Sequence record: PZ338877.1
Length of the DNA stretch: 64,000 nucleotides
Reading direction: 5' to 3' (one strand)
Source of the DNA: a phage
Below the pieces are notes generated by a model. That model was not told the DNA's origin and made no database searches. It saw only the letters and a list, made by a program, of their open reading frames with translations. Of the stretch, positions 2,798 to 63,367 are shown in pieces (within the stretch, counting starts at the first letter, position 1; every line of letters begins with the position of its first letter). A program made the translations under genes and the position numbers.

Positions 2798-2991
2798 TTA
2801 TTCTCCCCCTTAAAAGCTTTTTCTAAGTTATCTACGAACTCATCATCAATAGGTGTGTCTGTCTTACTCGCAAGGTATCTTGCAAGCCTAAAGAACACTT
2901 TCTCAATCATGTATTCACTTAGAAGGGATAAAATGAGTTTCCAGAAGAAGCTACCTAGATTTTTTAGAAGAATTGCTAGGATTGTAGGCAT
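2794..2991 (-). CDS. small membrane protein (holin-like?)
   Basis: 65 aa; hydrophobic N-terminus, charged C-terminus; GAGGTGA RBS. Confidence 0.4.
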   Translation of the reverse strand: MPTILAILLKNLGSFFWKLILSLLSEYMIEKVFFRLARYLASKTDTPIDDEFVDNLEKAFKGENK

Positions 2992-3070
2992 TTAATCACC
3001 TCATCAGCCAAGATGGTGAGAATACCCATAAAGAATATTAACACCATCTTAACAATCAGTCAATAAGGGA

Positions 3071-5416
3071 TTAAGCAGTTCTTACCCAAGCCATTAACTT
3101 GTAGAACTGGTTAGTAACACTAAATGCTGAACCAGAACCTGTACCCCCAGTGTTACCACTTACTGTGTGACTGTGAGCACCAATACCAACTGAGTGAGCG
3201 TGGTTACCAGCAGACGCAGCAGTACCACTTACAGAGTGGGTGTGAGCACCGTTAGCATCAGTGTAACCCGGCCCTGAACCAACGTATGCACCACCACCAC
3301 CAGAATAGTGCTGTGAGTTCTGACCAATCCACGAAATAGAGTGGTTGTGGTTACCAGCAGATGAAGTAGAGCCACTTACAGAGTGACTGTGAGCACCAGT
3401 TGTGTTAGTGTTTTTTGTTCCGTAGTCAAAAGATGAAGTGGTAGCAGAAAAACTGTGAGTGTGTGAAGGCAAGTTCCCAACAGCTAACGTCACAGAGTCT
3501 GAACCACCAGTTGTAGCAACATCTGAACCGTTTGCTGCTGCAATTCTGATAGTTCTACCAACACCATTGTTGAGGTACGTCCAAGTTAGACCAGGCAGTG
3601 CTGTATTAGGGTCAACATTACTGTTAAACCATGTCACAATACCCACTGGATAGATTTTATTAAGGTCTGTAGAATCACTTACTGCCTGTGCAATCTTCTG
3701 GTCAGTTTCAGTTTTAGTGTATGCACCAAGCTCTGAAGGGGTTGGTTTAAATGCCGTTGAATACAACTGTGCAGTTCCAACATATTCTCCATCTGACCCA
3801 TAAGCATATGTGAAGACATCAAGACCTTTAGACCCATATGTAAAAGAAATACCTCTAGCATGAGCAATACCAGCAGAATGTGCTACATGGATGGCTAAAT
3901 CTTTCATACCCTGCTCAATATCGTTGTTTCTTACAAACCCTGAATAGTCTTTATTGAATGATGCTGTGTCATCCAACCTATTAGTTGTCCTTACCATTAA
4001 AGATTGGTTTAACAGTTTTGTTTTTAAGAAATATCTAGCATCAATGTTAGTCCAATCTGAAGGCTGAACTTGACCAATGATTTTCACATTTTTATTCAAC
4101 AAGAAAACATCTTGCATATAAATCGTAGTTGCAGTGCTGCTGTTATGGATAATAAGTCTTTCTGGGTTGGATGATTCCCCATTCCCAATGTACCACCTTC
4201 TAACACCATCAGCATTATGACCAGCAAAGTATAGCTCTCCGTCTTGTGTAGTATTCTTTAGCTGTAACAATGAGCCATTCTGATTAATAATCTGTGCAGA
4301 CCTGAAAGTGTTCACATCACTTAACTTAGCAAGATTACTCAAAGTTCCTGCTGGGATGTATCTAGCGTCAATGTTAGTCCAATCTGAAGGCTGAACTTGA
4401 CCAGTGATTTTCACAGTCTTAGTAGTGGTAATCACATTTGACAAAGAGATAGTTGTACTCGTGGTGTAGTTATGTAGGTTGACTACAGAATCAGAGTTAT
4501 CAGTCCCTAAGTAGAACTTGTTTGTCCCATCAGCTTTCTGACCAAGCAGGTATAGCCCAGTTGCATCAGAGGCATTTTTAATAACTAGCACAGCATTATC
4601 TCTAGTGATATTGAACTCTCCTACAAAATTATTAATACCCCTGAAGGTGTTATTACCAACTAGCTGTGCAAATCTCTGATTAGCTGCCGTCTGTGTGAAG
4701 TATCTAGCATCTAAGTTAGACCAATCAGAAGGTTGAACTTGACCAGTAATCTGGAGAGACTTGTTCACAGTGATTAAGCTATCCAAAATAGCTACATATG
4801 CACCAGATTTAACATTTTTTAAAACAAGATTGTCTGTACCTTTGTTATCATTACCTAGATACCACCTGTTAGTACCATCTGCATCTTGACCGCGAATATA
4901 CAGCGGCATTCCTTGTGTAATATTCTTAACAATAATAGTTTCATTATCAGATAGAATATTTTGAGTACCTCTAAAGGTGTTACTTGCAGCCAATCTTGAG
5001 TATCTTGCATCATTCTCTTCATTAGTTCTCATCCCAAGCTCATTAGGGCTTGGCTTATTCAGAGTATGATAAACAGTTGCCGACCTTGAAGCATCTGCAA
5101 TAGTTAGTTTAAGGCCATTTGCGTTAATTTTAAAAGTCTTTAAAACATCCCCGATATTAATCTCAGAAGAGCCTGTTGGGTCAAAGACTGCCTTACCACC
5201 ATAAAGTAACTTAACAATCCCTAAGTCACCCGTCATAGTACTACCAGCAATCTGGACAAATCTCTCAAGCTTAAAAGACGCTAAGAAGTCTTGATAGGTC
5301 ATTCGACGGTCTTCATCACCTAGCATTTCAGGTCTCTTTTTAACCCTGACATGGAGAAGGTCGTCTGAACGAATTGTATCAATTGAGTTTAATTCACTCA
5401 ACTTGTAATCTGCCAT
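3071..5416 (-). CDS. tail fiber protein (long, distal; lambda Stf / T4 gp37-like tip)
   Basis: Track ORF 3071-5566 trimmed to internal Met51 (AAGAGGA RBS; avoids 104-nt overlap with upstream gene); three internal repeats containing QPSDW(T/S)N(I/L)DARY; C-terminal His-x-His motifs and SFDYGTK repeat. Confidence 0.8.
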
Positions 5417-5429
5417 TATAAATTTTCCT

Positions 5430-5451
5430 CTTAAAAGGGGCTTTATAGCCC
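5430..5451 (-). promoter_or_regulatory. intergenic stem-loop between the two tail fiber genes
   Basis: GGGGCT-loop-AGCCCC hairpin in the 46-nt spacer; same hairpin family recurs elsewhere in window. Confidence 0.4.
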
Positions 5452-5462
5452 CTGTAAAGAAA

Positions 5463-6611
5463 TTAAGCTGTTCTCTGCCATACATACAATACGAAGGATG
5501 GCTGTTCAACACTAAATGCTTGACCAGAACCAGTTGTACCAGTTGTACCAGAGTGTGAATGCTCACCTGCTCCGGTTACTGTTACTGTTGCTGAGTGGTT
5601 GTGGGAACCAATTGCAACAGTATGGCTGTGAGCACCAATACCAACCGTGTGATTATGCGCACCAATTGCTACAGAGTGAGTGTGGTTGTTAGCTGTTGTC
5701 AATGTAGCTCTTGGGTCATAGCTTGCCCCCTCAACCGATAAACCTCTCCAGCCACCATCAGCATAGCCACGGTTAATGAATGTTGTTTGTGTTAAACCAG
5801 CAGAACTTGTTGTTCTGTTGCCATAGTCATAAGTAGATACGGTCTTGGTTCCGTAGTCAAACGTGGTAGTTCCTTTAGTACCATAATCAAAAGCACTGAT
5901 AGAGGCCGTTGCACCATGAGTGTGACCACCACCAGTGACGTACACTGAGTGGGTATGTGCAGGGATGTTATTAACCGTCAGTGCAGTAGTCTGTGAACCA
6001 AACGTTGAACCAACTGGCCTAGAATCACTATCATAACCTACAAGTGCTCTCCCTTTTGAGACTAACTCCCAAGTACCTCCACAAATTAAATATGTAGAGG
6101 GGTTTGCAGGATTCATAGAGAGATGGATAGTACCTACTGGATAAGAAGCCTGAACAGCCTTGTACAAGTTATTTACTGCTCTTGCTGTAGCATACTTATC
6201 TGCATCTTCATTATAAAGGTTAGATGTTGTCCAGTTCTGGACATTACTTAAACCAACCTGTGCCTTAGTTGTATTGTGTGGGTTGCTCTTGTCATTAATA
6301 TGCTCTTGAATAAGGCTATTAACCTCTTCTGAAGACATAATCTGGAGATTTTTTCTTGCCTCAGCTACATTAACAATATCTGATAAGTTATTTGCAGCGA
6401 CTAACTGAAGAGCATTAATAACATTATCTAAACCAATTTGTGTCTTAGTAACACCATGAGGGTTATTTCTTAGGCTTGAGTGTGGAGCAAGTAATTGCTC
6501 AAGAGTACATCTCTTATCCTCAATACCCTGCTTAAGATGGAAGATATCACTAAGGTCAATTGGTAAGGCTGCTTGAGGCAAGGCACTAATTTGAATTTCA
6601 CCTACTGCCAT
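5463..6611 (-). CDS. tail fiber protein (paralog with His-rich C-terminal tip)
   Basis: 382 aa; NPH..TK.Q.GL.NV fibre repeats at N-terminus; C-terminus with FDYGTK x3 and HxH array ending ...W(Q/V)RTA like the neighbouring fiber. Confidence 0.75.
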
Positions 6612-41352: not shown

Positions 41353-42947
41353 TTATAAAATTTCATCGGTTGTCCCAACCTCTGGGTCACCATCATATGT
41401 GAATAAAATATCTACCCTTCTTAACAACCTTCTTAAGCTTACTCTCTATATATAGTTATATAGTACTATATAGTATCTTAGTATCTATCTAGTGGTCTTA
41501 ATAGCCCCTCTGTATAGCCCTTCTAAACACTCTTCTAACAAGCCTTCTTAACAACCTATACAATCACCTTAACCATCTCTCTACACACTCTTAGAAGCCC
41601 CTATACACCTCTTAATCTCTATGTCAGCTATGTTACTCTCTATAGGTGTTCACTAGGTATTACTAAGCCTCTATATAGACTGTTTTAACAAACTTAACAG
41701 GAATATCTTTACAGACCTTATCTCACAAGGTCTAACACGGTACTAACAAGGTATCTTATAAGCCTGTTTATGCCTGTATTTTTAGAAGACTGTCTAGGTA
41801 ATTATTCAGAATTTTAAAATTTTTATAAAATAGGGCTATCAAGTCATTTTTTAGGGTCTTTGAAGGAACTCAAAAATATCTGTCTGGGATGTATATCTGC
41901 TTGGTAGCCCTTAACATCCCTGTAACATCCCCTTTGCAGAATTTTAAAATATCATTAACAATCTCTTAACAGTTATCACATCTTCTTAACATCTCTTCAG
42001 AGGTCTTAACAGTTTCTTAACAGTTTTAACAAGGGTTTAACAGTTTTCTAACAAGTGCTGAATAGTCTTTACAGATGCTTAACAGATGACTAACAAGAGC
42101 TAACAAGTTAATTTTTAAGAGTTATTTTGTTAAGATAATTAACAAGTTTCTAACAAGTGTTTAATCTTTTTAACAAGCTATTAACATGGTCACTATCTCT
42201 TTCTTATCGTTCCCTTTCCCTCTTAGTGATTCTTTAAATAGCCCTCTTAAAAGCTCTCTATAGCTCCTTGTAAGCTCTTTTAAGTCTCTTCCTAGTAATT
42301 ACACCCCAACTATGTAGAAAGCTCTTTATAGGGCTTTACAGGGGCTTTAAAGGCTATGTCAAAGACTCTTACAAGGATTTTACATGGTTTTAACAGAGAT
42401 TTAACAAGGGGCTAACAAGTTGCTAACAAGTGCCTTAAAAGCATAACTATGTAGGATTTGTTAAGAAATTGTTAAGAAAATGTTAAGGGGGCTAGCATTT
42501 ACGTAACTTTTAAGCAACTTTGAAGTAACTTTATAGCCCCTATAACATACTTTTAAGACACTAACAAGCCCTTTTTAGTAGTTCACAAGATAGCTAACGA
42601 GATGATAAAGCTTACACCCTTATAAGATTCTTTTAAGGCTCTGGGAAGCTTTATAAAGGGCTTTTAAGGGTGAGGTAATGCAATCCCTTAAGTTAGGTTG
42701 ATAAGGCTGTTATAGGGCTTTATAGAGCGTTTAAATGGTTGCCCTTCCCTTTCGGGTTATGGGCTTATATTTAAGTTGATTTGATAAAAGGCTATAGAGT
42801 AAGCTATAGAGTTATTGCTTTTTAAGGTCTGATAAGATTCTGGAAAGGGAAAGGGAAAGGATTGTATAAGGATTGTATAAGACGTAAAAAAGCCCCATAT
42901 AAAGGGGCTGTAAAGGTATCTGGGGCTAAATAGCCCCGTTGCGGCGT
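41353..42947. repeat. 1.6-kb ORF-free region dense in short direct repeats (candidate origin or regulatory hub)
   Basis: No ORF of 60 aa or more on either strand; about 25 copies of TTAACA(A/G)(G/T)-type octamers, tandem GAAAGGG x3, AGGATTGTATA x2, several GGGGCT/AGCCCC hairpins; lies between convergent transcription units. Confidence 0.5.
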
Positions 42948-55707: not shown

Positions 55708-55737
55708 ATTCTAAGGGGCTTCAAAGCCCCTTGTCAA
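55708..55737 (-). promoter_or_regulatory. sigma70-like promoter with hairpin in spacer (upstream of rIIB)
   Basis: Minus strand: TTGACA-AGGGGCTTTGAAGCCCC-TTAGAAT; consensus -35 and near-consensus -10 separated by a GC hairpin. Confidence 0.45.
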
Positions 55738-58137: not shown

Positions 58138-58314
58138 TTACTTATTAAACATTTTACCAGAACCGCCACACATAGGGCAACAACCTGCTCTTGTATAGCC
58201 TTCTCCATTACAGAAGTCACATTTTTTGTGTTCTGCATAGTACTTACAAAGAAGGTAAACAAATACTGCTATACTGCCAAGTGACAGTAAAATTTCTATC
58301 CAATATGCTTGCAT
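58138..58314 (-). CDS. small TM plus zinc-ribbon protein (not in ORF track, under 60 aa)
   Basis: About 58 aa: hydrophobic helix then CDFCNG...CCPMCGG; GAGAGG RBS; overlaps neighbours slightly. Confidence 0.3.
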   Translation of the reverse strand: MQAYWIEILLSLGSIAVFVYLLCKYYAEHKKCDFCNGEGYTRAGCCPMCGGSGKMFNK

Positions 58315-58631
58315 GACTCACCTCTCATATTCTTGTAAAGGATAAAGCTTCTGTCATGAACGATGCTTGTAGATACTGCAAAGTTACTTTCAAGCATCTG
58401 TTTGTTTGGATTGTAGAAGCTTTCTTTAAACTCGTCAAGTGCAAATTGGTGATTGTCTGGAAGACCTTTTACACAGACCTTTATTGTGATTGCCGATGCA
58501 ACCTTGCCAGTCAGTTCTTCTTTAGCTGCTACTAAGATTTTGTTGAGGAACTTATGACCATTTTCAGGCTTCTTGATGTTCTCCCAGCGTTCTTCTAAGA
58601 CAATATTGATGTTCATTTCTTTGATTTTCAT
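58296..58631 (-). CDS. hypothetical protein
   Basis: 111 aa; downstream of terminator after Nampt-like gene. Confidence 0.5.
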   Translation of the reverse strand: MKIKEMNINIVLEERWENIKKPENGHKFLNKILVAAKEELTGKVASAITIKVCVKGLPDNHQFALDEFKESFYNPNKQMLESNFAVSTSIVHDRSFILYKNMRGESCKHIG

Positions 58632-58647
58632 AATCTTCTCCAGAAAT

Positions 58648-58670
58648 TAAAAAGGCTCCCGTAGGAGCCT
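58648..58670 (-). terminator. intrinsic terminator after Nampt-like gene
   Basis: AGGCTCC-CGTA-GGAGCCT hairpin followed by T-run on minus strand. Confidence 0.55.
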
Positions 58671-58684
58671 CTTATCATATACTT

Positions 58685-60466
58685 TTAAAGTTGCTTGTCA
58701 ATATTATTTCGAATATCACCAAGAGATGTGTAACCGAACTGCTCAGAGTCACTAAAGACTAAACGTAAAGCACAAGCTGGGTGTTCAAGCACATCTGCAA
58801 AGCTCTGGAATCCATAGCCATCTACAGCTTTCAGCTTATCACCATCCCACATAGGTGCTACACCACCAAAAGCAGACTTCTTAACACCACTATCTGTTTT
58901 AGGGTCTTTTGCAAGCATAATCTCTTTGCCACCAATGCTTGCAAGAGTTGCTTTGACAGCAAATGCAAAGGTGTCACGAGTCATGTACTGGTAAGTGTAA
59001 GAGCCTACACCAAACACTACGTTAGAGCTTGCAAAACCCATTTCATACAAACGCTTCAGGATTTCGTTTGCACGTTCCAGCGTGATAGAGTCACCATAAA
59101 TAAGCCCGATGTGCTCATCCAGTACTTTAAAACCTTTAGAGTTGATAGTTCCTCCAAAGATGTTATACAGTGTCTTGATAGCTCCATCAATCTCTGCTAC
59201 AGGACGTGTTACAACATTTGCAGAACCAACCATATAAGCATTTTTCAACATAACTGTATCAGCAACTTCAAAGTCTTCTCTGTCAACAACCATCTCGTAG
59301 CCTTCTGACAGTAGCCATCCAGCAATACCATAACTGATGTTTTCAAGCTTCATGTTCAGAACAGCATTCAACATTGTGTCGCTTGCTTCCAGCTTGCTTA
59401 GGTGTTCGTAATAAGCTTTTTTAGCGCACTCTAAATGGATTGCTTTATAACCTGTGACAATATGTACAGGGTCACCAGAGTCAGGACGAATTACCAGTTT
59501 GCCGTCACGTTCCATAATCTCTTTACGAAGTGCTGGTAAGATTTCTGATACAGTTCTCCAGAAGTTATAAGTGTCTGAAACAACACTTGCAATACCAGTT
59601 GGGTAAGTTTCTGTTAAGAAACGACGGAAGGTTTGTAACTCACCTTTAAAGCGTCTTTCTTCTTCAACCAACTCATTCCCACCTTCCCAAGCAATGTTTG
59701 CACACATGACAGAGTGTTCAGTGGCTGGTACAGAACCACCAATATCGGAAATTGGATAGGACTGTCCATAGATGCGTTTAGCTGTATATACAGCAGGGAA
59801 GCTATCAGTTCCTTTAAAGCTGGTTAAGTGACCTACAGCATTAAATGCGTCATCAGTAAAGCCAGACATACCACGCATAGCAAAGTCATGGCACTGATAA
59901 GGTAAATGCAAGTCATTGTCGCAAGTAAGGTCAGACCACTTCTTACAGATACGTTTGTAGTGCAATGCAATAGTTGCAATGGTACAAGCCTTCCAAATCT
60001 CAGCAGAGAAAGCATCTTCCAGATACCCAGCTACCCAATGGAAACCTGAAACAGTGTTCTGGAAGACAATCATTGGTACACGCATAGGAACAACTGTGCC
60101 TTCTTCTACAGCGTATACTTCAACTGGTAGATAGCCTAAGTCGTGAAGTGCTTCCCAATGTTCTCGACCAATAGCATCTTTACCCAGAACACCGTTCATG
60201 ACTTCTAAGATTTCGTCAATTGCTTCTTTTTTGTCACGTTCAAAGAAGGTGGTGTTCCAGTGGTCTATCAAGTAATCTTTAACAAAACGTTGAATACCAA
60301 AAGCAACTACACCGTCAATTGCTAAAGGGCTGTTAAACCATTTATCACTACGTGGTGTCAGGTTGAACATTAGGTACTCTGTTGCACTAGGATACTGATA
60401 AATATGGCCAGACTTGTAAGCATCCGCGTTTAAACCTGCTGGTACTGCATAAAGTGATTTAGTCAT
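58685..60466 (-). CDS. nicotinamide phosphoribosyltransferase family protein (Nampt/NadV-like; possibly Namat of an NAD+ reconstitution pathway)
   Basis: Trimmed to Met7 (ATG); N-terminal ...DAYKSGHIYQYP matches Nampt DSYK.tHy.QYP motif; ~593 aa; adjacent to Prs-like gene. Confidence 0.8.
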   Translation of the reverse strand: MTKSLYAVPAGLNADAYKSGHIYQYPSATEYLMFNLTPRSDKWFNSPLAIDGVVAFGIQRFVKDYLIDHWNTTFFERDKKEAIDEILEVMNGVLGKDAIGREHWEALHDLGYLPVEVYAVEEGTVVPMRVPMIVFQNTVSGFHWVAGYLEDAFSAEIWKACTIATIALHYKRICKKWSDLTCDNDLHLPYQCHDFAMRGMSGFTDDAFNAVGHLTSFKGTDSFPAVYTAKRIYGQSYPISDIGGSVPATEHSVMCANIAWEGGNELVEEERRFKGELQTFRRFLTETYPTGIASVVSDTYNFWRTVSEILPALRKEIMERDGKLVIRPDSGDPVHIVTGYKAIHLECAKKAYYEHLSKLEASDTMLNAVLNMKLENISYGIAGWLLSEGYEMVVDREDFEVADTVMLKNAYMVGSANVVTRPVAEIDGAIKTLYNIFGGTINSKGFKVLDEHIGLIYGDSITLERANEILKRLYEMGFASSNVVFGVGSYTYQYMTRDTFAFAVKATLASIGGKEIMLAKDPKTDSGVKKSAFGGVAPMWDGDKLKAVDGYGFQSFADVLEHPACALRLVFSDSEQFGYTSLGDIRNNIDKQL

Positions 60467-60488
60467 CTTTTTAATCTCTCTCAAAATG

Positions 60489-60504
60489 GGGCTTTGAAGC
60501 CCCT
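60489..60504 (-). promoter_or_regulatory. GGGGCTT-CAAA-GCCCC stem-loop between Prs-like and Nampt-like genes
   Basis: Same hairpin as in the rIIB promoter spacer; followed by TTGAGAGAGA leader. Confidence 0.4.
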
Positions 60505-60512
60505 ATAAAGTT

Positions 60513-61394
60513 TCAATCAATGGTAATTACAGTAACTTGGGCATAATGTGTTAAGCCACGGTCTTTAGCTTCCCCTAAAGAGTTTGTAGTGTAGATATGG
60601 TCAATACCATTGTCAAGTAAGTTTTCAACACCTTTAGAGAAAATGCCATGAGTTACATAGAGTTCCACACGTTTTGCACCTGCTTCACGAAGATGTTTAG
60701 CTGCTTCTATGAAGGTTCGACCACCATCACAGATATCATCGAGAATCATGACAGTTTTATCTGTCAAATCAACAGCATCAAGGATTCGCATACCAGTAAT
60801 TTCACCAGTCTTAAGGTTGCGTACTTTAGACATTGTGATGTATGGTTTATCCACCTCTTTAGCAGCCTCTTCAGTCTTCTTAGCTGCACCTGCATCTGGA
60901 GCTACCAATAAATCAATGCGTGGGTCACTTGCAAAGTGTACTGCCACATCTTTTTGCTTCATGCTCTGGAAGCACTTAAATAAGTTTTCTGCAACATTGC
61001 TGTGAGGGTCAAGAGCACATACTGCATCAAAACCCATTGCATTAACGAGGTTGGCAAAAGCTTTCAGTGCTGCTGAATCGCCTTTGAACATATGGCGGTC
61101 ATATCGAGCATTCGGTAAGAACCCGAAAACAACGGTTTTCATCGCTGATTTATATGGAACAAGACTGTCAATGGCATCCTTAGCCAAAGCTAATGCAAAC
61201 AGTGTATCTTTATCATATCCCTGCACAGTAAGTATAACATTGTCAATCTTACCAGCATTACGCTCAGTAAACTTAACAAAATCTTCAGAGAAGTTTCCAC
61301 CAATTTCTCCAGATGGGAATTGGATGATATTAAATTTTTCTGTGTGGAAGAATTTCTCTTGTGCGGTGACAACGGCTTCAATAATAGTTTTCAT
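60513..61394 (-). CDS. ribose-phosphate pyrophosphokinase family protein (Prs-like; possibly ADPR-PP synthetase Adps)
   Basis: Trimmed to Met6 (first ATG; track start appears to be TTG); motifs PNARYDR, ALDPHS and PRPP-binding loop ILDDICDGGRT match Prs. Confidence 0.8.
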   Translation of the reverse strand: MKTIIEAVVTAQEKFFHTEKFNIIQFPSGEIGGNFSEDFVKFTERNAGKIDNVILTVQGYDKDTLFALALAKDAIDSLVPYKSAMKTVVFGFLPNARYDRHMFKGDSAALKAFANLVNAMGFDAVCALDPHSNVAENLFKCFQSMKQKDVAVHFASDPRIDLLVAPDAGAAKKTEEAAKEVDKPYITMSKVRNLKTGEITGMRILDAVDLTDKTVMILDDICDGGRTFIEAAKHLREAGAKRVELYVTHGIFSKGVENLLDNGIDHIYTTNSLGEAKDRGLTHYAQVTVITID

Positions 61395-61409
61395 AGTTTT
61401 CTCTCTCAA

Positions 61410-61943
61410 TCAAAAGTTACGTTTGTTACTGCCATTGTAAGTTGCCCTATAAACTGTCTCGAACTTCAACAGGAGAGATATTGCCAAATCTGTATAGTTG
61501 TTGTCAAGCACATCTGGCATATTATTTTTGATATATTTCTCTTGCTCTTCATAGGTCATCTTAGGAGTACTTAGGAGGTTATCTCCTTGCTTCTGATTAT
61601 CAGCTTTAGTTTGGATAAACCAGTTTGCACAGTGATGCTCACCGCCTTTTGTAACAGGCTTGTGGTGACCCAGTGTGAAGGCTTGACTACCTGTATATCT
61701 GCAAAGTTTATTGAGCACTGTGATAGTGTTCTTTACAACAAAACATTCATACAGGTTATCTATGGTATAATGTGGGTAATAGCGGAATAGTGCTCTTTCA
61801 CGAGTACTATCACGATTCCAGAGAATCATGTGATTTGAGTTAGAAGGGTCGTATTGGTGGGAGTCAATGAACTCTTGACGTTCTTCAAAGCTTAGTCTTA
61901 GAACTGACATTGCAGCCGAACGTTTTAGATTTGACAGATACAT
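61410..61943 (-). mobile_element. HNH homing endonuclease gene
   Basis: 177 aa; HNH motif HHKPVTKGGEHHCANW....N; free-standing between nrdG-side genes and Prs-like gene. Confidence 0.55.
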
Positions 61944-62317: not shown

Positions 62318-62575
62318 TTATTTAGCCTTCTTGTTACGTTTACGGTTACGAGCTTTCTTAGCTGCACGTTTAATAGCTGCTGCACCAGTTGGTCGATGTG
62401 CTTGTTTTTTACCACCTTTACCACGACCTACATAGATACTTTTCATAATCTCATTAGCTAGTTTCTCATCCATCTTGAAGTTCTGCATGAGATGAGTAAC
62501 GTCAACACCAGTGAGCATACCTAGTGATGCCAGTGCTGCTTTTACTTTTGATTTAAAACTGTTCCAGATTCCCAT
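62318..62575 (-). CDS. hypothetical protein with basic C-terminal tail
   Basis: 85 aa; GAGAGG RBS; C-terminal KKARNRKRNKKAK. Confidence 0.45.
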   Translation of the reverse strand: MGIWNSFKSKVKAALASLGMLTGVDVTHLMQNFKMDEKLANEIMKSIYVGRGKGGKKQAHRPTGAAAIKRAAKKARNRKRNKKAK

Positions 62576-62844
62576 TTCGTACCTCTCTCAATCTTTTCAC
62601 AAAATGTTTTAAGTTCTTCTTCAGTGACACCAACAATACTGTCACCAACGTTTAAATTTGTTTTGTAGAACATTGTAAAGTGGCCTTTACCAATAACTTC
62701 GAATGTTCCCACCTTCTCAATCTCTGCTAAGGCTTCCATTCCAACATTACCAAACAGTGAGTTTGTATACTTTTTCCACTCATCAAGGAGTTCGGTCTTG
62801 ACCTTATAAGTGCCTAATAAAGCACTATTAAAAGAGATAATCAT
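62542..62844 (-). CDS. hypothetical protein
   Basis: Track ORF trimmed to Met53 (AGGTGAG RBS) to remove overlap with nrdG. Confidence 0.4.
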   Translation of the reverse strand: MIISFNSALLGTYKVKTELLDEWKKYTNSLFGNVGMEALAEIEKVGTFEVIGKGHFTMFYKTNLNVGDSIVGVTEEELKTFCEKIERGTKWESGTVLNQK

Positions 62845-62881
62845 TATCTCACCTTTCCCGTAGCCAATTTTACGACGAGAT

Positions 62882-63367
62882 TTACTCTGCTCGCCATTGA
62901 CAATCACCTTGCCACCCATACTCTTTTCTCCAGAGGTTTTGGTTATCAGAACCACGATATGGTTTAACTGTTGGTTTAGAAGAATCATACTTACCATCAA
63001 TCACCACGTCAACATATTTCATCACATCTAGGTGAATTTTTTCGTGTAACTGAAAACCTGTCCAAAGCCATATAGACTTTTCTGGATAAACAGTTTTAAT
63101 ACGTTTACATATGTTGGTGACCTCTTGAATGTTCCTATCATCAAGAGGCTCTCCACCAAGTATTGACAACCCACTGATGGCCTTATCATCCATTAACTTA
63201 ATGATGCCGTAGAGGTTTGCATAAGTAAACTCTTTACCAGCATTAAACTTCCAAGACTCCCTGTTAAAGCAGCCTTCACAGTGATGCTTACAACCAGCTA
63301 CGAAGAGGCTTACACGAACCCCTTCACCATTAGCTGTGTCAAATGGTCGAATCTCCATGTAATTCAT
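62882..63367 (-). CDS. nrdG: anaerobic ribonucleotide reductase activating protein
   Basis: 161 aa; radical-SAM cluster GCKHHCEGCFN (Cx3Cx2C) near N-terminus as in NrdG. Confidence 0.75.
   Translation of the reverse strand: MNYMEIRPFDTANGEGVRVSLFVAGCKHHCEGCFNRESWKFNAGKEFTYANLYGIIKLMDDKAISGLSILGGEPLDDRNIQEVTNICKRIKTVYPEKSIWLWTGFQLHEKIHLDVMKYVDVVIDGKYDSSKPTVKPYRGSDNQNLWRKEYGWQGDCQWRAE

Follow-up and report, generated by a model that had tools for sequence, protein, structure and literature searches.

Two adjacent phage genes, one of the nicotinamide phosphoribosyltransferase (Nampt) family and the other of the PRPP-synthetase (Prs) family, raise the question of whether they encode canonical enzymes of NAD salvage or the two enzymes, Adps and Namat, of the NAD+ reconstitution pathway NARP1. 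We analysed them within a stretch of 64,000 nucleotides (hereafter the window), which represents ~64 of ~87 kb. The locus is very probably the NARP1 operon of a Felixounavirus (Felix O1-like phage), orthologous to the archetype described in phage Bas63. The system is already known, and nothing new is added here to NARP1 biology.

Both genes were confirmed to lie back to back on the minus strand, as the preliminary description had reported. The gene adps (61394..60513; 293 aa, Prs family, predicted ADP-ribose pyrophosphokinase and first enzyme of NARP1) runs from an ATG at 61394 to a stop codon at 60515-60513, and namat (60466..58685; 593 aa, Nampt family, predicted nicotinamide ADP-ribose transferase and second enzyme) from an ATG at 60466 to a stop codon at 58687-58685, according to the reading of the ORFs. 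The range 58685-61394 thus extends exactly from the namat stop to the adps start. As in NARP1 operons, adps is located 5' of the co-oriented namat, with a 46-nt spacer. Alternative TTG starts at 61409 (adps) and 60484 (namat) were rejected, the TTG of the leader being merely in frame; the ATGs were preferred because the Bas63 orthologues are annotated from ATGs and because these codons show proper spacing from a ribosome-binding site (RBS). Upstream of adps, an ORF of 177 aa (61410..61943, minus strand) belongs to phrog_3500 (function unknown), has a weak HNH-like match and is 98 % identical to bas63_0077 over 171 aa; it falls outside the known NARP1 components. Further neighbours are NrdG upstream and rIIA and rIIB downstream. 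The same locus was found in ~224-259 Felixounavirus-type phage records.

The Adps protein matches the Pfam domains Pribosyltran and Pribosyl_synth as well as phrog_619 (E 3.6e-98 in PHROG). Its closest relationship is with phage proteins: 278 of 293 residues are identical to bas63_0079 (95 %, gapless), and identity to the Adps of three further NARP1 loci amounts to 82 %, 37 % and 31 %. Across these five phage Adps, the Prs catalytic motifs NARYDR, DPHS, K190 and DDICDGGRT are kept; the catalytic Lys, K190, corresponds to K197 of B. subtilis Prs and to K162 of SPβL1 Adps. The ribose-phosphate loop is also conserved. Cellular Prs structures in the PDB are distant (best E 1.3e-16, 50-64 bits), and the protein scores far under every NCBIfam Prs equivalog cutoff (e.g. 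111 bits vs 296), the match to TIGR01251 being at subfamily level only. We therefore assign the window protein to the phage Adps clade, not to housekeeping Prs, a placement made by pairwise identity to a clade member.

The Namat protein matches Pfam NAPRTase (E 5.7e-35) and NAMPT_N, together with phrog_448 (E 3e-202 in PHROG), and is identical to bas63_0080 at 582 of 593 positions (98 %, gapless). In a PDB sequence search, the top solved structure was the Namat of phage SPβL1 (9W5W/9W5X, E 7.5e-127; 48 % identity across 449 aligned residues), the human Nampt structure being matched at E ~1e-40. A Namat-specific motif, GSxΦxΦxΦTRD, and the residues of a selectivity clamp have been published (PMC12774641). 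In the window protein, the motif of the selectivity-clamp helix (SCH) reads GSYTYQYMTRD (residues 488-498, including Y490 and Y494), and the selectivity-clamp loop (SCL) carries K42 followed by W43, an arrangement described for Bas63 (PMC12774641). The KVP40-like Nampt, 31 % identical to window Namat, has GGGLLQQLDRD at the SCH position.

Every residue that contacts a ligand in the crystallised SPβL1 Namat has an identical or conservatively substituted counterpart in the window protein. The matching positions are D15, Y17, F195, R198, D221, H251, R327 and D329, to which are added G458-D459, G488-S489, Y490, Y494 and T496-R497-D498. In the alignment, D15, Y17, F195, R198, D221 and A248 correspond to SPβL1 D13, Y15, F189, R192, D215 and A242, and H251, R327, D329, G458 and D459 to H245, R306, D308, G360 and D361. 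The catalytic core of Nampt type is conserved in Namat, with the catalytic His and the contacts to nicotinamide and ribose-phosphate. Neither Adps (15 substitutions relative to Bas63) nor Namat (11 substitutions) differs at any position mapped as catalytic or as part of the clamp. The Namat insertion (residues 338-430) had no significant domain match in Pfam or among PDB sequences; this insertion of ~85 aa, found in the Felixounavirus clade, might add a further property to the enzyme.

A further element is the search for an NMN adenylyltransferase (Nmnat). No PF01467-type or other adenylyltransferase match was obtained with Pfam among the 61 window ORFs scanned, and the preliminary description, which had seen no such gene in the window, holds for these ORFs. 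The ORFs of at least 150 aa outside the Pfam scan all fall within 3071-25904, a structural block that, judged from gene order and size, seems equivalent to bas63_0002-0027. The part of the genome beyond the window appears, from gene order and the ORF map, to be the counterpart of the replication and nucleotide-metabolism block of Bas63, and the full Bas63 annotation contains no Nmnat, NadR or NadD. NARP2 is defined by a phage-encoded Nmnat and a KVP40-clade Nampt; the window enzyme carries the clamp residues of Namat, not of Nampt.

Taken together, the 95 % and 98 % identities to bas63_0079 and bas63_0080, the clamp motif, the SPβL1 Namat as top structure match and the lack of an Nmnat match bear out the earlier proposal that this pairing is NARP1. 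That proposal came with the caveat that sequence alone cannot tell Adps and Namat from Prs and Nampt; comparison sequences do separate them.

What the operon would do is taken from published work on its orthologues. NARP1 was discovered in the Bas63 operon (Osterman et al., bioRxiv 10.1101/2024.02.11.579819). Deletion of genes 79-80 in Bas63 led to ~20-fold fewer plaques on cells carrying SIR2-HerA and to deeper NAD+ depletion, and ADPR-PP appeared during Bas63 infection only when the operon and the SIR2-HerA defence were both present; loss of host pncC and nadR (ΔpncC ΔnadR) did not abolish protection (10.1101/2024.02.11.579819). The in vitro reactions, from ADPR and ATP to ADPR-PP and from ADPR-PP and nicotinamide to NAD+, were obtained with the SPβL1 homologues, so that the purified-enzyme data concern SPβL1 proteins (Namat 48 % identical), not those of Felixounavirus (10.1101/2024.02.11.579819). 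According to this scheme, a NAD-depleting defence (SIR2-HerA/Nezha, DSR, type I Thoeris, SEFIR or similar) would cleave NAD+ into ADP-ribose and nicotinamide. Adps would then pyrophosphorylate ADP-ribose with ATP to yield ADPR-PP, and Namat would join nicotinamide to ADPR-PP directly into NAD+ with release of pyrophosphate. NAD+ would in this way be rebuilt with neither an NMN intermediate nor host salvage enzymes. We infer these activities for the window proteins from their 95-98 % identity to the Bas63 genes.

Regarding expression, the two genes were said to share a TTGAGAGAGA leader and to have GGGGCT/AGCCCC hairpins; the leader was confirmed, the hairpins only in part. Corrections to the earlier proposal are confined to these two features and are minor. 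The sequence TTGAGAGAGA occurs exactly three times in the window, vs 0.19 expected. One copy (60475..60484, minus strand) lies 8 nt 5' of the namat ATG as a Shine-Dalgarno-like RBS region and is conserved in four phages; another (61400..61409, minus strand), of the same RBS type, lies 5 nt 5' of the adps ATG and shares nucleotides with the stop codon of the ORF upstream, its GAGAGA core being kept in four phages. The leader is thus real at both genes, but it belongs to a common GAGAGA-type RBS region: ~ten genes in the window, including rIIB and a distal Macro-domain gene, have GAGAGA 5-13 nt upstream of their start codons. This recurrence indicates a general Shine-Dalgarno-like element, and a NARP1-specific regulatory role for TTGAGAGAGA was ruled out. 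Both cistrons are predicted to be translated from these ribosome-binding regions.

As for the hairpins, the operon contains a single GGGGCT-N4-AGCCCC structure, located past the adps stop codon and ahead of the RBS of namat (60488..60503, minus strand; GC-rich, GGGGCUUCAAAGCCCC, followed by AUUUUG). Its stem is invariant and its loop variable in Bas63, AYO145A and Henu12, and the surrounding 54 nt of intergenic sequence fold at -13.8 kcal/mol (z -2.6). The AYO145A annotation lists this hairpin as a rho-independent terminator; it was missed by our terminator scan because of its weak T-run. The other three GGGGCT/AGCCCC copies of the window are located outside the operon (5437, 42922 and 55715), which rules out one such hairpin per gene. 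The hairpin following namat differs: it is an intrinsic terminator (58650..58673, minus strand; AAGAGGCUCC/GGAGCCUUUU) with a 10-bp stem, a GNRA-like loop UACG and a U-run (-16.6 kcal/mol, z -3.1). Another terminator-like hairpin was found at 61983-61961, upstream of the 177-aa ORF. From this layout, adps and namat are predicted to form one transcription unit, probably together with the 177-aa ORF, as there is no terminator on the way from that ORF to adps, and the unit would be bounded by the hairpins at 61983-61961 and 58673-58650. The weak conserved hairpin of the intergenic spacer may act as an attenuator or as a stabiliser of the transcript, and could lower namat expression.

The sole remaining lead concerns a gene outside the operon whose product possibly widens the range of the pathway. 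A Macro-domain protein of 261 aa (50498..49713, minus strand; Pfam Macro E 6.6e-8) is encoded ~8 kb downstream; it is the equivalent of bas63_0095 and matches phrog_335, annotated 'phosphatase' (E 4e-113). In a split version of NARP1-AP acting in trans, this protein would dephosphorylate ADPR-1''-phosphate and feed ADP-ribose to Adps, the ADPR-1''-phosphate coming from RES NADases of the aRES type. Its N-terminal ~160 aa are indeed related to Macro proteins encoded next to NARP1, i.e. the 'phosphatase' that Vibrio phage K470 encodes between its adps and namat genes (28 %, E 1e-12) and the Poa1p-like protein of Pseudomonas phage M5.1, whose gene lies two positions past namat (34 %, E 6e-21). 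The gene is on the strand of the operon, has the same GAGAGA-type RBS and is conserved in ~258 Felixounavirus-type records; moreover, the published survey covered only two genes on either side of NARP1, so that a Macro gene 8 kb away would escape it. Against this, NARP1-AP as defined has its Macro phosphatase within two genes of the operon, and the only Macro gene seen here is ~8 kb off; in Pfam searches, no Macro or RyR gene was found directly beside the operon, the flanking ORFs (61410-61943 and 58296-58631) having no such match. The same Macro family is present in ~2800 phage records, including those of T4-like phages, which are not known to carry NARP1. Scores against the DarG and TARG1/OARD1 macro domains are comparable to or better than that against Poa1p (E 0.015), the NCBIfam DarG macro domain being matched at E 9.5e-13, below cutoff. 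The protein also has an extra C-terminal region of ~100 aa, whose 105 residues gave no significant match in Pfam and PDB sequence searches. Homology fits a role as DarG/TARG1-like ADP-ribosyl hydrolase equally well, and we regard the split NARP1-AP as unlikely; the Macro protein is a possible accessory, either an Adpp-like ADPR-1''-phosphate phosphatase or an ADP-ribosyl hydrolase of the DarG/TARG1 type. Were the split arrangement true, Felixounavirus NARP1 would also defeat RES NADases of the aRES type.

Canonical salvage, in which the Prs-like enzyme would supply PRPP, the Nampt-like enzyme would form NMN and host NadR or PncC would complete NAD+, making the pair a general auxiliary metabolic module and not a route of direct NAD+ reconstitution, agrees with the names given by Pfam, NCBIfam and most GenBank records (ribose-phosphate pyrophosphokinase and nicotinamide/nicotinate phosphoribosyltransferase) and with the PRPP-to-NMN activity that Namat keeps in vitro (PMC12774641), by which some canonical chemistry may occur, but it is highly improbable in view of the Bas63 genes, 95-98 % identical, whose protection is independent of host pncC/nadR and accompanied by ADPR-PP in infected cells, of the preference of SPβL1 Namat for ADPR-PP when given both substrates, of the intact adenine-binding clamp, absent from Nampt, and of the Adps scores far under all Prs equivalog cutoffs.

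With the locus read as NARP1, the window phage is predicted to resist NAD+ depletion of the SIR2, TIR, DSR and SEFIR types, a property that matters when Felix O1-like phages are selected for use in therapy or in biocontrol. A practical sequence test to distinguish Namat from Nampt also emerges, i.e. GSxΦxΦxΦTRD combined with a Prs homologue next to the gene and the lack of an Nmnat. Finally, a recently described counter-defence pathway proved recognisable by tool-free reading of the sequence. Searching the literature for Felixounavirus and NARP1 in combination yielded no paper, the connection being made through the name Bas63/JohannRWettstein.

Among known systems, the NARP1 of Bas63 (Escherichia phage JohannRWettstein, MZ501086; bas63_0079/bas63_0080) is the nearest: the phage belongs to the same genus, Felixounavirus, gene order, strand and protein lengths (293 and 593 aa) are the same, DNA identity reaches 94.1 % over 2809 nt, and both loci have the intergenic hairpin and the RBS leaders and are flanked by NrdG and by rIIA/rIIB, whereas the window is devoid of the small bas63_0078 (directly upstream of adps) and bas63_0081 (directly downstream of namat). 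With the NARP1 of Bacillus phage SPβL1, whose biochemistry and structure are known, it shares the two-enzyme logic, the Namat core and the selectivity clamp; however, window Namat has an extra ~85 aa (~343-427) and ~15 aa (~260-278) absent from SPβL1, and its SCL is 4 residues longer, with K42/W43 in place of R40. The Adps and Namat core is also common to NARP1-AP (Adps-Adpp-Namat, Vibrio phage Gary type, found in Vibrio phage K470, whose Namat is 41 % identical to that of the window), but unlike NARP1-AP and NARP1 with RyDEP (phage DyoEdafos), the window operon has no Macro- or RyR-domain gene within or beside it. NARP2 (Nampt and Nmnat, Vibrio phage KVP40 type) shares a Nampt-family enzyme and the role against NAD+ depletion, but it consumes PRPP, requires the Nmnat that was not found in the window and has no adjacent Prs homologue, and the KVP40-like Nampt, so distant from window Namat (only 31 % identical), lacks the aromatic SCH motif that the latter carries.

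The operon formed by the Prs-family and Nampt-family genes of the window, adps and namat, is the already published NAD+ reconstitution pathway NARP1, found here in a phage of the genus that supplied its type example. As the preliminary description proposed, two ORFs lie back to back on one strand, the minus strand: adps upstream (ATG at 61394, stop codon at 60515-60513, 293 aa) and namat downstream (ATG at 60466, stop codon at 58687-58685, 593 aa), separated by 46 nt, so that the range originally given (58685-61394) runs exactly from the Namat stop to the Adps start. Family matches agree, namely Pfam Pribosyltran and Pribosyl_synth with PHROG 619 ("ribose-phosphate pyrophosphokinase") for Adps, and Pfam NAPRTase and NAMPT_N with PHROG 448 ("nicotinamide phosphoribosyl transferase") for Namat. 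TTG starts from a mechanical ORF list were rejected, these being in-frame TTG codons of the leader, and orthologues are annotated from the ATGs.

Megablast of the locus matched 259 phage records at 90-98% identity, nearly all of them Felix O1-like phages of Escherichia, Salmonella, Shigella and Citrobacter. A 25-kb query from the window was 92-93% identical to many Felixounavirus genomes, Escherichia phage JohannRWettstein (Bas63, MZ501086) being among the best twelve. In Bas63, bas63_0079 ("ribose-phosphate pyrophosphokinase") and bas63_0080 ("nicotinamide phosphoribosyltransferase") have the same lengths as the window Adps and Namat and align to them without gaps (278/293 residues identical, 95%, and 582/593, 98%, respectively), with 94.1% DNA identity over 2809 nt. 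NARP1 was discovered in these two Bas63 genes; their deletion (Δ79-80) gave ~20-fold fewer plaques and a deeper NAD+ drop on SIR2-HerA cells, ADPR-PP (m/z 720.010) appeared only with operon and defence together, and protection was independent of host pncC or nadR (bioRxiv 10.1101/2024.02.11.579819). For the SPβL1 enzymes, conversion of ADPR and ATP to ADPR-PP by Adps, and of ADPR-PP and nicotinamide to NAD+ by Namat, was demonstrated in the same study. The NARP1 reading is thus supported by identity to the Bas63 genes, by the Namat clamp residues and by the lack of Nmnat.

The alternative pathway NARP2 pairs Nampt with an NMN adenylyltransferase (Nmnat). No cytidylyl-/adenylyltransferase domain was found by Pfam in 61 window ORFs, in line with the preliminary description, and Nmnat, NadR and NadD are missing from the complete annotation of Bas63; NARP2 was excluded on these grounds. 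ORFs of at least 150 aa outside the Pfam scan all fall within 3071-25904, a structural block that, judging from order and size rather than from alignment, seems to correspond to bas63_0002-0027.

The selectivity clamp of Namat binds the adenine of ADPR-PP and has two parts, a helix (SCH) and a loop (SCL), the latter being the variable β1-β2 loop, with Arg, Lys or Tyr in third position; if this is Lys or Tyr, stacking is provided by the next residue, as in Bas63 (PMC12774641). In the window Namat, the SCH motif reads GSYTYQYMTRD (residues 488-498) and the SCL carries K42-W43. Ligand contacts were mapped through a HMMER alignment to the SPβL1 Namat structure 9W5X (PMC12774641), and all those listed are identical or conservatively replaced (window/SPβL1: D15/D13, Y17/Y15, F195/F189, A196/S190, R198/R192, D221/D215, A248/A242, H251/H245, R327/R306, D329/D308, G458/G360, D459/D361, S460/A362, G488/G390, S489/S391, Y490/F392, Y494/Y396, T496/T398, R497/R399 and D498/D400). 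The two proteins are 48% identical over 449 aligned positions, and in a PDB search the window Namat scored 427 bits to SPβL1 Namat versus ~140 bits to human Nampt. In contrast, the Nampt of the KVP40-like Schizotequatrovirus R11Z is 31% identical to the window Namat, reads GGGLLQQLDRD at the SCH position and, unlike namat, has no Prs gene alongside.

Relative to SPβL1 Namat and Nampt, Felixounavirus Namat contains insertions of ~85 aa (residues ~343-427; window 59186-59440, minus strand) and ~15 aa (~260-278). The larger one is common to Henu12 and partly to the M5.1 and K470 Namats; it gave no match in Pfam and PDB sequence searches and is absent from the discussion in the text of the structural paper (PMC12774641).

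Adps was aligned at full length across five NARP1 loci (window, Bas63, Henu12, Pseudomonas phage M5.1 and Vibrio phage K470). The Prs catalytic elements fall among the residues that do not vary: NARYDR, DPHS, K190 and R192 of the flexible loop, and the ribose-phosphate loop DDICDGGRT. K190 occupies the position of B. subtilis Prs K197 and of SPβL1 Adps K162, the latter a target of mutagenesis in the first NARP1 study (bioRxiv 10.1101/2024.02.11.579819). Cellular Prs structures in the PDB match the window Adps weakly (best E 1.3e-16), and it scores far under every NCBIfam Prs equivalog cutoff, which fits a diverged phage subfamily.

The leader said to be common to both genes was recovered: the window has exactly three occurrences of TTGAGAGAGA (0.19 expected), of which one stops 5 nt short of the adps ATG and another 8 nt short of the namat ATG. 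Its GAGAGA core is conserved ahead of adps and namat alike in Bas63, in AYO145A and in Henu12, a more distant phage, and lies 5-13 nt ahead of the start codons of ~10 window genes, including rIIB and a Macro-domain gene; from its placement it is best read as a Shine-Dalgarno-like element of this phage. As for the GGGGCT/AGCCCC hairpins attributed to the pair, one does lie between the genes (60488-60503), while the other three perfect GGGGCT-N4-AGCCCC copies in the window are elsewhere (5437-5452, 42922-42937 and 55715-55730; none expected). At least two of the four are intergenic and directly 3' of genes (rIIA, adps), and the family probably represents a type of terminator or RNA-stability hairpin that recurs in this phage. 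The operon copy has an invariant stem and a variable loop across four phages, and the 54-nt intergenic stretch containing it folds at -13.8 kcal/mol (z -2.6). It was annotated as a rho-independent terminator by the authors of AYO145A; given its short U-run (AUUUUG), it would be an attenuator or stabiliser at most.

The terminator after namat (58673-58650) is of a different type and stronger (-16.6 kcal/mol, z -3.1). Another terminator-like hairpin (61983-61961) lies upstream of a 177-aa ORF (61410-61943, minus strand) abutting adps; from these two hairpins, the likely transcription unit is ORF177-adps-namat, the 177-aa ORF probably being co-transcribed with NARP1. This ORF belongs to phrog_3500 and weakly resembles HNH endonucleases (phrog_2214, E 1e-4), with a DUF7167 match below threshold; we know of no link between it and the pathway. 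A sigma-70 promoter (TTGACA-16-TATGAT, 11/12 consensus match), also annotated in AYO145A, is predicted at 58674-58701 on the minus strand, within the last codons of namat and abutting the 5' arm of the terminator. Its transcripts would miss the full terminator hairpin, making this predicted terminator/promoter junction a compact one feeding the downstream 111-aa ORF and rIIA.

Some NARP1 operons carry further genes, namely a Macro-domain ADPR-1''-P phosphatase (Adpp) in NARP1-AP (bioRxiv 10.64898/2026.01.28.702374) and the RyR-domain glycosidase RyDEP in some mycobacteriophages (bioRxiv 10.64898/2026.05.28.727677). Neither an Adpp Macro nor a RyDEP RyR gene was found by Pfam in the flanking ORFs, and the window operon is therefore a plain two-gene NARP1. 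A 261-aa Macro-domain protein, equivalent to bas63_0095 ("putative phosphatase"), is encoded ~8 kb downstream (50498..49713, minus strand); the published survey spanned only two genes either side of NARP1 (bioRxiv 10.64898/2026.01.28.702374), too few to reach a distal Adpp. Its Macro domain is N-terminal (Pfam E 6.6e-8; phrog_335 E 4e-113), followed by a further ~100 aa that match no family. The protein shares 28% identity (E 1e-12) with the Macro "phosphatase" encoded between adps and namat in K470, and 34% (E 6e-21) with the "Poa1p-like" Macro protein encoded two genes downstream of namat in M5.1. Matches were also obtained to the DarG macro domain (E 9.5e-13, well short of the cutoff), to TARG1/OARD1 (E 2e-5) and, at E 0.015 only, to Poa1p. 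The family extends to ~2800 phage records, including T4-like phages, which are not known to carry NARP1. Because of this wide distribution and of the DarG and TARG1/OARD1 matches, we do not commit to Adpp status: the protein may act as an Adpp encoded at a distance, or as an anti-DarT hydrolase. This lead and the Namat insertion are the sole items beyond the literature consulted.

Compared with Bas63, the window cleanly lacks two small genes, bas63_0078, which encodes 92 aa directly upstream of adps, and bas63_0081, which encodes ~114 aa directly downstream of namat, the sites being 61410-61437 and 58629-58632 in the window and 2962-3203 and 6012-6357 in the compared Bas63 stretch (L004). The last ~30 nt of bas63_0078, with the adps ribosome-binding site, survive in the window, where they close the 177-aa ORF at its 3' end. 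The two sequences also differ around 62437-62884 and 63385. AYO145A has bas63_0078 and lacks bas63_0081, and this presence-absence pattern is ordinary small-gene flux. Window neighbours of NARP1 include rIIA, rIIB, NrdG and polynucleotide kinase. As in the window, NARP1 lies near rIIA/rIIB in K470 (OZ196312, L006:1-6122) and near polynucleotide kinase and RNA ligase in M5.1 (L007:1094-5471); its position beside other host-takeover and repair genes is a recurring neighbourhood across unrelated phages.
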